DNA from: a virus
Lineage: Duplodnaviria > Caudoviricetes
IMG/VR virus record: IMGVR_UViG_3300038679_000357
Location: 32,001-96,000 of that record
Reading direction: 5' to 3' (one strand)
Length of the DNA stretch: 64,000 bases
Positions 32,283-35,335 of the stretch are shown here, piece after piece; positions within the stretch are counted from its first letter, which is position 1, and the number at the start of each line of letters is the position of its first letter. Under the pieces are notes generated by a model. It ran no database searches. It was not told the origin of the DNA and was given only the letters and a program-made list of their open reading frames with translations. The position numbers and the translations under genes were made by a program.

Positions 32283-34118
32283 TCACAAACCTAAAAGATC
32301 TGTAATGGACGGCGCTCCATCATATCCACTTTCATCAACTTTTGAGGCTTTTTTCTCTTTCTTAAATGCAAGGAGATACGCCACCATTTCATCTCGCGAC
32401 ATATCAAATATTTTCATCGCGCCTCCATCACTCAATAACTCAATGATTTTCTTGGAGACCTTACTGTTTTTTGTCAAAAATTCTCTAAAATCAGCATATG
32501 GCTGATTGTCTATTACCTGCCTTACGGCGATGTCTCCGACGCCTTTTAGGAAAGTTAATGGAGTACGAATTGCGCGACCTTCGATCGTGAATATTTCCTT
32601 ACTATGATTGATATCCGGAGCAAGAAGGGGGATTTTTAACACGGTACTCGTTTCAATCATATACCTTTCTAAACTTTTATCACCAATATTGGCAGACATA
32701 AGAGCACACATATACTCAATCGTGTAGTATCTCTTCAAGTAGGCGGTTTGATAAACAAGAAACGCATAACATGCAGCATGTGAGCGGTTAAACCCATAAC
32801 CACCAAACATTTCTATCTTGTTCCAGGTGTCTAGGGCAACGCTCTCTAAAATTCCATTTGACAAACAGCCAGAAACAAACTTCCCCTTCATTTCAGCCAT
32901 CAATTCCATATTCTTTTTACCGATAGCCTTACGTAATTTATCGGCTTCTGACGAGGTAAATCCCGCCATCGATTTCGATAAATTCATAATCTGTTCCTGA
33001 TATACGATCATACTATAAGTCGGACTCAGAACGGCTTTCATGCTGGGGTGAGCATATTCAATTTTCATCTTCCCCAATTTATAGTCGCAATAAAACTCAT
33101 TCACCTTCGCCCTCAATGGTCCTGGGCGGTAAATAGCGTTAGCAGCAACTATATCTTCAAAAGAATCGACATGCATTTGTTTAAGCAACTTCGTCATTCC
33201 GTAACTTTCAACCTGAAAAATACCGTTGGTAATACCGGCATTAAGCATTTTGAAAACTTCTGCGTCATTTGGTTCAAGAGCATCGATATCAAACTTAACG
33301 CCATGACGCTCTTCAATCATTTTCATTGTACGATCAACAACAGAAAGCATCTTTAACGCAAGAATATCAAACTTTAACAACCCGATATATTCAACTTCAT
33401 CCTTATCGAACTGAGAGCAAACAACTCCCTTAGACGCCCTCATCGGAGTTAATTCTTTGACTTTCTTATTACTAACAACAATACCTGCGGCATGAACACC
33501 GCCGCTTGATACCCGTCCTTCAATCTTCTTACACGCCCTTGCATACGCTGGATATTTCTTCATAATGGCAGAAAGCTCGGGAGACGCCTCAATAGCTTCT
33601 TCCAACGTAGCAGCCTTTGAATCTGCCATCTTCGCTATTGCATCAGACATCTCCATTGTGCCCTTGCCAGTTTTATTTCCGGCAATCCAATCATTTGCCA
33701 GATCCATCACCTTGGCAACATGTCTTAGCGCAGCGCGTGACTTCAATACATTGTACGTACCGATATTACACGTGTATTCAGCTCCATACGTCTGAATCAA
33801 GTAGTTATACACTTCATCGCGACGGAAATAATCAAAATCCATATCGACATCAGGAGGAGAGACACGAGCTGGAGCCATAGTTTCACTTGGGCGGAAATTG
33901 CCTATCGGCTTGGCTCCAGTCATTCCTGTCCAATACGCTATGTAGGAGTTACATTTATTTCGAGTACCCTTCTTCAACTTACCAGAAAGAAAGTCTTCAT
34001 ACGTTTTTACGAAGTTATCGTAAACTTTGGTGTCTCTCATCCTGCGTTCTTCAATCAAAAATACACTCTCATTGTACTCCGAATGACTTTCACACGCAGT
34101 CTTCAAATCCACGCTCAT
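32283..34118 (-). CDS. dnaE: DNA polymerase III alpha, C-terminal part (palm/fingers/HhH)
   Basis: SPPDVDMDF, GVHAAGIV, KFDILAL, GIFQ.ES, YRPGP, YQEQIM, YGFNRSHA..Y, PDINHS, KGVG; SD GGAGGT. Confidence 0.95.
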   Translation of the reverse strand: MSVDLKTACESHSEYNESVFLIEERRMRDTKVYDNFVKTYEDFLSGKLKKGTRNKCNSYIAYWTGMTGAKPIGNFRPSETMAPARVSPPDVDMDFDYFRRDEVYNYLIQTYGAEYTCNIGTYNVLKSRAALRHVAKVMDLANDWIAGNKTGKGTMEMSDAIAKMADSKAATLEEAIEASPELSAIMKKYPAYARACKKIEGRVSSGGVHAAGIVVSNKKVKELTPMRASKGVVCSQFDKDEVEYIGLLKFDILALKMLSVVDRTMKMIEERHGVKFDIDALEPNDAEVFKMLNAGITNGIFQVESYGMTKLLKQMHVDSFEDIVAANAIYRPGPLRAKVNEFYCDYKLGKMKIEYAHPSMKAVLSPTYSMIVYQEQIMNLSKSMAGFTSSEADKLRKAIGKKNMELMAEMKGKFVSGCLSNGILESVALDTWNKIEMFGGYGFNRSHAACYAFLVYQTAYLKRYYTIEYMCALMSANIGDKSLERYMIETSTVLKIPLLAPDINHSKEIFTIEGRAIRTPLTFLKGVGDIAVRQVIDNQPYADFREFLTKNSKVSKKIIELLSDGGAMKIFDMSRDEMVAYLLAFKKEKKASKVDESGYDGAPSITDLLGL

Positions 34119-35335
34119 ATAACCACCTCCATTCCGAAATCACTCGCATCAATCTTATAGTCAGTTTTCACGGACAGAAATCGCTCAAGCAACAAATCAT
34201 ATTTAATAGGGTCCAGCTTGGTGATTCCAAGAACATAAAGTGCGAGTGAGCCAGCAGCGCTACCACGCCCTGGACCGACACGAATTCCACGCGACTTAGC
34301 ATTTGCGACGAAATCCCATAGAACAAGAAAATACAGAATGTAATCACAAGCCTCAAACACACGCAATTCATATTCCAGACGATCAACATATCGTTCGTCT
34401 TTATCTAGCCCTTTTTCGCGCAATCCGGCAAATACAAGTTGACGGAAAAATTCATTAGGCGGTTGCTTACCGCTGATGTGGGAGCCTGGAATGTAATTGC
34501 CCTTTGTTTTCATTGTGTCAGAATCAATCGACTCTGCGATCTCGACTGTATTTCGTAAATATTCCGGTTTATCCTTAAACAACTCGCACATTTCACTTTC
34601 CGACTTCAAGTAATATTCTGGTTGTTTGAGTCTAAACCTAGATTGATCCTTAACGCACTTTGCCCCCTCAAGACACGTAAAAATATCATGAACGTCAGCA
34701 TCCTCGCGCACTAAGTATCTAACATCGTTTGCGGCGACGCATTTTATTCCCTGAGCCTGGGCAATATCCTCCATTTTTGCCATTACTTCTGCTTCAGCCG
34801 TATCCCCAGGATGTCGAAGAATTTCAAAATATAAATTATCACCAAACAACGATCGATATTTTTTTATTGCTTTCCGAGCTTTATCATATTCATTCATCCA
34901 CACCATTCTTGGTATGTGACTATACATGTTCCCCGTCAAGCAAATCAAACCTTCCGTTCTTCCTTCCAGATACTGGAAGTCAATTCGAGGTTTTCCATAA
35001 AATCCAGTCACAAACGATTCCGTGGATATGTCTAGTAAATTTTTATACCCAACATTGTTCTTTGCCAAAACAACAATCGTCCTTCTTCTCTGTCCATCAC
35101 CTTTTTCCTTAACATTACGATCAGCAACGACCATCAATTCTAAACCAAGAATTGGTTTTATCCCGGCTTTCTCGCAACCAGTAACAAATTTAGGGAATCC
35201 GGCACACGACCCAAGATCGGTTATTGCAATAGCCTTAAACTCCTTGGACTTTGCGGCAGCAACAATTTCTTTGGGCGTTGGCATTGCATGTAGCATACTA
35301 TAATGAGACTTGACGTGTAGGTGTACGAAATCCAT
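34115..35335 (-). CDS. dnaE: DNA polymerase III alpha, N-terminal part (PHP plus start of palm)
   Basis: [51 protein letters not shown]..ERFL. Confidence 0.95.
   Translation of the reverse strand: [406 protein letters not shown]

Follow-up and report, generated by a model that had tools for sequence, protein, structure and literature searches.

A phage DnaE encoded by two overlapping genes, with broken ends that probably derive from a mobile homing-endonuclease cassette

Organization of the split dnaE locus

The window analyzed here is a stretch of 64,000 nucleotides (nt), positions 32,001 to 96,000 of IMG/VR record IMGVR_UViG_3300038679_000357, which is a 255-kb virus (Caudoviricetes) judged to be 97% complete and whose DNA is present in groundwater metagenomes. 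It contains two overlapping genes on the minus strand that together code for a DNA polymerase III (Pol III) alpha subunit of the DnaE type. We refer to their products as the N-half and the C-half, to the end of the N-half as the N-tail, and to the beginning of the C-half as the leader. The features of the locus, with protein lengths in amino acids (aa), are as follows:

34115..35335, minus strand: dnaE N-half gene, 406 aa, covering the PHP domain and the beginning of the palm with GPGRGS and the ERFL helix (ORF, Pfam, alignment A3)
34175..34387, minus strand: palm repeat copy 1, the functional copy, N-half residues 317-387 (hhalign target range 317-386), with GPGRGS at 34259..34276
34118..34174, minus strand: N-tail, 19 aa after ERFL, with a DFG motif common to most N-halves of the split architecture (tail alignment)
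34115..34130, minus strand: junction, with a GGAGGT Shine-Dalgarno (SD) sequence at 34130..34125, a 6-nt spacer, the ATG at 34118..34116 and the TGA at 34117..34115
32283..34118, minus strand: dnaE C-half gene, 611 aa, with the leader, the catalytic strand, the rest of the palm, thumb, fingers and a helix-hairpin-helix (HhH) domain (ORF, Pfam, alignment A4)
33867..34118, minus strand: leader, C-half residues 1-84, putative palm repeat copy 2 (alignments A2, A5 and A6, hhalign, fold search, profile search)
33834..33866, minus strand: catalytic strand RVSPPDVDMDF, from C-half residue 85, with R85, S87, P89, D90, V91, D92, D94 and F95 invariant

A first-pass annotation of the sequence had described this locus as a split dnaE from which two polypeptides are to be expected, and the two open reading frames (ORFs) bear this out. 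The ATG of the C-half overlaps the TGA of the N-half (ATGA) and is preceded 6 bases upstream by GGAGGT; the N-half terminates in ...LLLERFLSV and 17 more residues (19 aa counted from ERFL), and the cut lies between ERFL and RVSPPDVD, that is, through the catalytic palm. By Pfam analysis, the N-half contains a PHP domain (PF02811, E 4e-44, residues 5-175) and profile positions 3-98 of PF07733 (5e-29), and the C-half contains positions 68-260 of PF07733, the fingers (PF17657, E 3e-54) and HHH_6 (PF14579, E 5e-15); the PF07733 ranges of the two halves share about 30 profile positions. Both halves are conserved over their full length (alignments A3 and A4), with G354, G356, R357, G358, S359, R385 and F386 invariant in the N-half and the catalytic D90, D92 and D251 invariant in the C-half. 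We take D90 and D92 to be the equivalents of D401 and D403 of Escherichia coli Pol III alpha. The window contains the features of the DnaE family (PHP, a palm with GxGRGS, three catalytic aspartates, fingers and HhH), but its catalytic core is spread over two ORFs in different frames instead of a single polypeptide, which makes it a two-chain DnaE variant. The PHP motif HLHVKSHYS, at N-half residues 5-13 (region 35320..35335), shows a Lys at the place of the third His, which PHP domains active in proofreading usually have.

The leader as a decayed copy of the N-half palm segment

The first-pass annotation had also read the leader as a degenerate copy of the last segment of the N-half, a reading upheld by a profile slide, by hhalign and by a fold search. 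Judged from sequence profiles and predicted structure, the 84-aa leader is a diverged second copy of about residues 317-386 of the N-half. A BLASTP comparison of the two halves returned no alignment of the proposed segments, and a narrow leader profile made from 20 sequences gave an hhalign P of 0.33 against full canonical DnaE, though it was placed correctly. Using a broader leader profile of 32 sequences against the N-half profile, leader residues 21-84 were aligned to N-half residues 317-386 with a P of 5.9e-4 and 31% identity. Sliding the profiles along each other without gaps gave a peak one residue off the predicted register (z 4.8-5.2); a gapless alignment anchored at offset 0 had given no signal and was discarded, the signal being found at offset -1. 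Residues paired in the ungapped leader/N-half alignment are G51/G356, S58/S363, Y62/Y367, G65/G370, T67/T372 and P71/P376. The tblastn matches of the N-half and the C-half overlapped by 33-48 aa on one-chain phage DnaE genes.

Folded alone, the leader was predicted to be a helical, palm-like module, with a predicted local distance difference test (pLDDT) score of 79. When this model was searched against 48,161 chains, the top seven matches were all palms of C-family polymerases (Z 7.0 to 3.9), followed by an unrelated chain at Z 2.9. The matches included 5lew residues 311-413 (Z 7.0), E. coli 5m1s residues 290-393 (Z 5.7) and PolC 3f2b (Z 4.5), and the segment matched in C-family polymerases is the one directly before the catalytic aspartates. 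A Foldseek search of the isolated leader against PDB returned only a weak match, Mycobacterium tuberculosis DnaE (E 5.1). The four independent lines (Pfam/tblastn overlap, profile slide, hhalign and fold search) agree on the same register.

The two copies differ at the nucleotide-binding loop. In every leader the GRGSxxGS of copy 1 has turned into G..N..NS, and GxGRGS is absent from all 32 aligned leaders. Since every leader has lost GRGS, only copy 1 can serve as the canonical motif. The leader has nevertheless conserved positions of its own (F20, E23, G51, N54, N57, S58, A61, T67 and E79 are invariant in the clade), and a more distant leader, that of P0139, still reads NSLVAYALGIT...KRFINARV where canonical enzymes have GSxVAYxLGIT...ERFLNPxRV. 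The N-tail was likewise considered as a relic of the catalytic PDxDxDF strand, and this was rejected: IDASDFG resembles PDVDxDF by eye only, and in a profile slide of the N-tail the highest z, about 3.4, fell three to four residues away from the expected register.

The split and the insert in related genes

Comparison with related phages revealed the same split and gene order in relatives at 54-69% identity (RecD2-like helicase, two small opposite-strand genes, DnaE, three small genes, RecA and primase), and the split is present in at least six diverged assemblies. The junction of locus L003 has the same ATGA overlap as the window. In L004 it reads TGA, one base, ATG, which gives a frame offset unlike that of the window and L003. 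In all three loci the C-half start codon has an SD site. Some PHP-less C-halves (P0028, P0030, P0031 and P0046; 641-654 aa) begin about 40-60 residues before ERFL and show a different, more upstream palm break.

Other relatives of the window have a contiguous DnaE with the same extra sequence. The spacing from ERFL to RVS is 7 residues in canonical relatives versus 109-115 in the clade of the window, and the corresponding insert of about 105 aa sits in frame in contiguous relatives (P0002, P0004, P0008-P0012 and P0014-P0020, all with ERFL and RVS 109-115 aa apart). The nearest of these are 1013-1066 aa long and carry, between ERFL and RVS, the N-tail, a short linker and the leader; the linker is variable and of low complexity. 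The IMG/VR scan added a single leader-bearing locus, L098, which is likewise contiguous. An AlphaFold model of the contiguous P0002 had a mean pLDDT of 92.3 with the insert predicted confidently, and it matched Pol III alpha structures with template modeling (TM) scores of 0.75-0.79. The break in the window maps to the linker joining the two folded pieces, and tail and leader stand where the canonical form has an NPE tripeptide.

Predicted assembly of the two chains

A model of the N-half/C-half complex was evaluated with the interaction prediction score from aligned errors (ipSAE); 58 of 80 solved complexes reach the mark used, as do 2 of 110 mismatched pairs. The complex scored 0.86 versus 0.00 for the best control, a value that speaks of likeness and not of binding, as the two chains are halves of a fold solved as one chain and the pass may be memory of known structures. 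The runs had at least 94% of their contacts in common, with partner pLDDT of at least 84. In the model, the GRGS loop of the N-half (residues 351-360) touches C-half residues 94-99, at the catalytic strand as in one-chain enzymes, and the interface includes the N-tail region (residues 384-405) and leader residues 27-85. On this predicted structure, the active site of the window DnaE is most likely built from two polypeptides, and tail and leader most likely act as a docking clasp.

The probable cassette in other dnaE genes

A profile of the leader only was searched against 1.84 billion representatives (E up to 1e-3). It matched 41 clusters, none of them a canonical palm, and nearly all matches were the N-termini of PHP-less C-halves. 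The N-half upstream of each C-half that was examined ends in ERFL and a similar tail, usually with DFG; tails of the same type were seen in L003, L004, L012, L013, L014, L095, L112 and L115. All loci are cut at one site, between ERFL and RVS, in dnaE genes of phages and of Chloroflexota type. The gap between the halves contains:

L095, L096/L097 and L113/L114: homologous free-standing LAGLIDADG endonuclease genes, with zinc-finger repeats in L096 and L113
L012: a 131-aa remnant of endonuclease zinc fingers (E 1.5e-5)
L112 and L115: ORFs unrelated to the LAGLIDADG genes
L013: a 181-nt spacer
L014, L003, L004 and the window: nothing

The LAGLIDADG genes of L095, L096/L097 and L113/L114 are homologous to each other with E values of 1e-22 to 4e-56; the ORFs in the gaps of L112 and L115 had no family match and no likeness to them. 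L012, a 10.4-kb contig with dnaE at 1216..6900, is cellular and of Anaerolineae type, with an OB-fold domain and metabolic neighbours, and its polymerase body shares 54-58% identity with canonical Chloroflexota DnaE1. In the GTDB genomes nearest P0139, none of the 78 loci with the catalytic motif has the leader, and in all of them the upstream frame is open (for more than 230 aa in 74, and to the contig end in the other 4).

In a tree of polymerase bodies that included cellular DnaE1, leader-bearing enzymes appeared in at least six places with canonical enzymes as sisters (for example P0136 with L072 and P0135 with L018), and some nested within canonical Chloroflexota DnaE1. Forcing the leader-bearing enzymes into a single clade costs 287 log-likelihood units and was rejected by the approximately unbiased (AU) test (p 1e-6; at least six changes), the group tested having been named after the tree was seen. 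The leaders score 49-106 against each other versus 13-51 against any copy-1 palm, including that of their own host. Because the bodies are polyphyletic yet the leaders are most alike each other, the leader appears to have arisen once and to have moved among dnaE genes, always to the same site. Such movement to one site is, as read from these comparisons, the behaviour of a homing element. Of the marks of homing-type genes in pieces, a single conserved site in unrelated alleles with intact close kin was found here; an endonuclease gene between the halves was found in L095, L096/97 and L113/114, as a remnant in L012, and not in the window. Two results thus go beyond the first-pass annotation, namely the insert in contiguous relatives and, by sequence comparison, the occurrence of tail and leader in many further dnaE genes as flanks of a homing-endonuclease cassette.

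Many leader-bearing C-halves (P0124, P0126, P0129, P0131, P0136 and P0139) also contain a true intein in the fingers, which frequently includes a LAGLIDADG domain. Different mobile elements have therefore entered these dnaE genes at two sites. In L115 (8252..10299), an intein is also found in RecA.

Origin and function of the split

We consider it likely that the window encodes a two-subunit DnaE assembled from split halves and that it represents the endonuclease-free end state of a mobile cassette. In such an enzyme, the PHP domain would come from the N-half, as would the palm helices that bear the nucleotide-binding loop GPGRGS; thumb, fingers, HhH domain and the catalytic D90, D92 and D251 would come from the C-half. 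Translation of the two genes would be coupled by the ATGA overlap and the ribosome-binding site of the C-half gene, and the two products would associate non-covalently and rebuild an ordinary Pol III alpha palm. Tail and leader would be the flanks of a mobile cassette whose core, to go by the relatives, would be a free-standing LAGLIDADG homing-endonuclease gene. The cassette would target a highly conserved stretch of dnaE and would have moved between phage and bacterial dnaE genes. In the window the endonuclease gene would have been lost, leaving the halves to abut, and sister phages may either have kept the split or have fused the halves in frame with the insert retained. With respect to the cassette, the sequence comparisons make the window most likely an endonuclease-free, non-splicing end state of an element that fractures genes. 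A more specific proposal, that tail and leader are a portable non-splicing clasp which arose once from a duplicated host palm and spread with a LAGLIDADG endonuclease over phage and bacterial dnaE genes, is put forward tentatively, and we would give it a little less than an even chance.

Several observations weigh against this reading. The window contains neither an endonuclease gene nor a remnant of one, and no LAGLIDADG match was found in the whole 255-kb genome; because the window genome is without an endonuclease trace, the cassette history proposed for it is drawn from distant relatives only. When the trees are rooted with canonical forms, the clade of the window has contiguous, insert-bearing enzymes as its deepest branches (P0016, P0014-18 and P0019/20/P0123). 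The sequence support for a duplication is modest (best P 6e-4, with BLASTP blank), the docking role of tail and leader comes from one structure predictor, and the group used in the AU test was chosen after the fact.

An alternative is a purely local history, in which an in-frame tandem duplication of about 100 palm residues was followed by decay of copy 2 and by a later break of the linker without any endonuclease, endonucleases having entered the permissive linker afterwards in other lineages and then carried its flanks with them. The present function would be unchanged and only the order of events would differ. The contiguous deep branches would fit a plain fission of an insert-bearing gene, and the variable, low-complexity linker of the contiguous forms and the lack of an endonuclease trace in the window genome are also in its favour. 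However, each of the more distant lineages that were sampled and carry a leader has the split (P0133, the P0126-P0129 group and the P0131/P0136/P0139 group), several of them hold an endonuclease gene or its remnant, and parsimony within one clade is weak because fusion or fission each needs only a small linker change. We regard this local history as unlikely. It appears very improbable that tail and leader are instead what is left of a defunct split intein and that no palm duplication is involved. Fractured dnaE genes with split inteins and free-standing endonucleases do occur in phage-like metagenomic DNA (PMC2677866), and many relatives have true inteins elsewhere, in the fingers domain. A short N piece next to a long C piece is also reminiscent of atypically split inteins. 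Yet neither half gave a PF14890 match, even at E 0.1; the last leader residue is Ala84 and the next one Arg85, where an intein would have Asn and then Cys, Ser or Thr; the tail begins with S, T, G or A, depending on the relative; and the leader is helical, with polymerase palms as its only clear structural matches and no HINT chain among the best 50 matches of the leader folded alone. The placement of the leader on the palm by hhalign, and the still palm-like leader of P0139, point in the same direction. The first-pass annotation was thus right in calling the split intein-free.

It is hardly credible that one continuous protein is produced by a programmed frameshift or bypass, or that the break reflects an error of sequencing or assembly or marks a newly formed pseudogene. 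An SD-like sequence just 5' of a stop codon can stimulate frameshifting, as is known for prfB, and the contiguous relatives indicate that a one-chain form works. No slippery heptamer was found at GTT ATA TGA, though, and each of the three C-half genes compared has its start codon and SD site. The frame relation differs among the window, L003 and L004, the first two needing a -1 shift and the third a +1 shift, which argues against a shared frameshift, bypass or stop read-through; an intron would have no space, as the two ORFs overlap. An error or pseudogene is opposed by the recurrence of the split in the diverged assemblies, by the full-length conservation of both halves, and by the source contig, which has about 20x depth and no variants at the junction. 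A second groundwater sample (X2) gave an identical junction sequence, with only 22 bases on one side, below the 31 asked for a bridge. With no intron room, no shared bypass, a split that recurs in diverged relatives and a leader that matches the palm, the two-gene arrangement described in the first-pass annotation stands. Its suggestion that the two palm copies are alternatives, between which the enzyme would swap or switch domains, was not supported. Conservation and a predicted fold are seen for either copy, but none of the 32 leaders keeps the GxGRGS that copy 1 retains, and the complex model seats copy 1, with the GRGS loop of the N-half, at the catalytic strand; such a switch has, in our view, scarcely any chance of being correct.

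Comparison with known split genes

A literature search of incomplete coverage returned only split DnaE of the intein type and fractured genes, and no description of the present architecture. Phage genes in pieces that a free-standing homing endonuclease has produced, with neither intron nor intein, are reportedly known from nrdA of phage Aeh1, said to be split by mobE (work attributed to Friedrich et al. 2007), and from the gene 43 polymerase of Aeromonas phages 25 and 44RR, said to be split as well (work attributed to Petrov et al. 2006). As in those systems, the gene of an essential replication enzyme is broken at a conserved position, giving two ORFs whose products would form a non-covalent complex (predicted here), an endonuclease gene lies between the halves (here in relatives), and neither RNA nor protein would be spliced. 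Unlike them, the window is cut through a C-family catalytic palm and its endonuclease would have been lost, a conserved tail and leader travel with the cassette, the leader appears to be a decayed neighbouring segment of the host gene, and the present cassette is found in many unrelated dnaE genes.

A cyanobacterial split DnaE with a naturally split intein has reportedly been described (work attributed to Wu et al. 1998). Both systems make a replicative DnaE from two genes, but the cyanobacterial site is in the fingers region, the genes are far apart and the halves are trans-spliced into one chain; the window is cut elsewhere, as the first-pass annotation had noted. Two cultured phages, vB_BauM_KLEB27-3 (Bacillus) and phiT1 (Rossellomorea), likewise have two adjacent DnaE coding sequences and, like the relatives with the cassette, an endonuclease or a small ORF between them (an HNH gene in KLEB27-3). 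Unlike in the window, their breaks lie far downstream of this position, the first halves being 691 and 573 aa long, and they have no such leader.

In the fractured genes (Dassa et al. 2009, PMC2677866), which include three dnaE loci, a free-standing endonuclease gene lies between halves that carry split inteins. Their end pieces are genuine split inteins (88-105 aa and 33-54 aa) that retain every splicing residue, and the endonuclease genes are of GIY-YIG or Vsr-like type (Dassa et al. 2009, PMC2677866). Like the present cassette, they are found mostly in phage-like DNA, involve a dnaE that is in two pieces with a free-standing endonuclease in the gap, and have extra peptides at both broken ends that unite the halves (predicted here). 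In contrast, the flanks in the window lack HINT motifs, have reversed sizes (19 and 84 aa) and show a palm-like fold, the endonuclease of the cassette is of LAGLIDADG type, and ligation is not expected (PMC2677866 for the fractured genes). The nearest known systems are therefore both the genes in pieces with free-standing endonucleases and the fractured genes with split inteins, the present case being distinguished by its non-intein flanks and by the cut through a C-family active site.

Genomic neighbourhood

The dnaE genes lie within a replication and recombination module on the minus strand of the window (20562..39051 and 52130..58736). Neighbouring genes are:

20562..22952, minus strand: SbcC/Rad50-like ATPase
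22928..24112, minus strand: Mre11/SbcD-like phosphoesterase
28261..29070, minus strand: DnaG/Toprim primase
29015..30208, minus strand: RecA
35321..35902 and 35903..36631, plus strand: two genes without family match between DnaE and the helicase
36622..39051, minus strand: RecD2-like helicase
52130..54283, minus strand: ClpB-like double AAA+ protein
57033..58736, minus strand: DnaB-like helicase

The opposite-strand pair (about 160 and 240 aa) holds the same position in L003, L005 and L006, which makes it a conserved part of the module. In L005, a 500-kb relative with a contiguous DnaE, an IS605 OrfB/TnpB (Cas12f-like) gene is located directly 3' of dnaE (7225..8337).

Implications

If the proposed reading is correct, the clasp formed by tail and leader would be a third way, beside introns and inteins, of making the insertion of a homing element harmless. 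It suggests a route by which a homing endonuclease could establish itself in the best-conserved region of an essential gene with no self-splicing vehicle, a route in which the decayed copy of a host segment would keep the pieces together. The series from endonuclease-bearing through remnant and abutting to fused forms would then be a natural record of the homing cycle. The 19-aa tail and the 84-aa leader may also be of use as a non-covalent protein-pairing tag, if binding is shown. As for the polymerase family itself, two chains can apparently make up the palm of a C-family replicase, one of which would carry the nucleotide-binding loop and the other the metal-binding aspartates.

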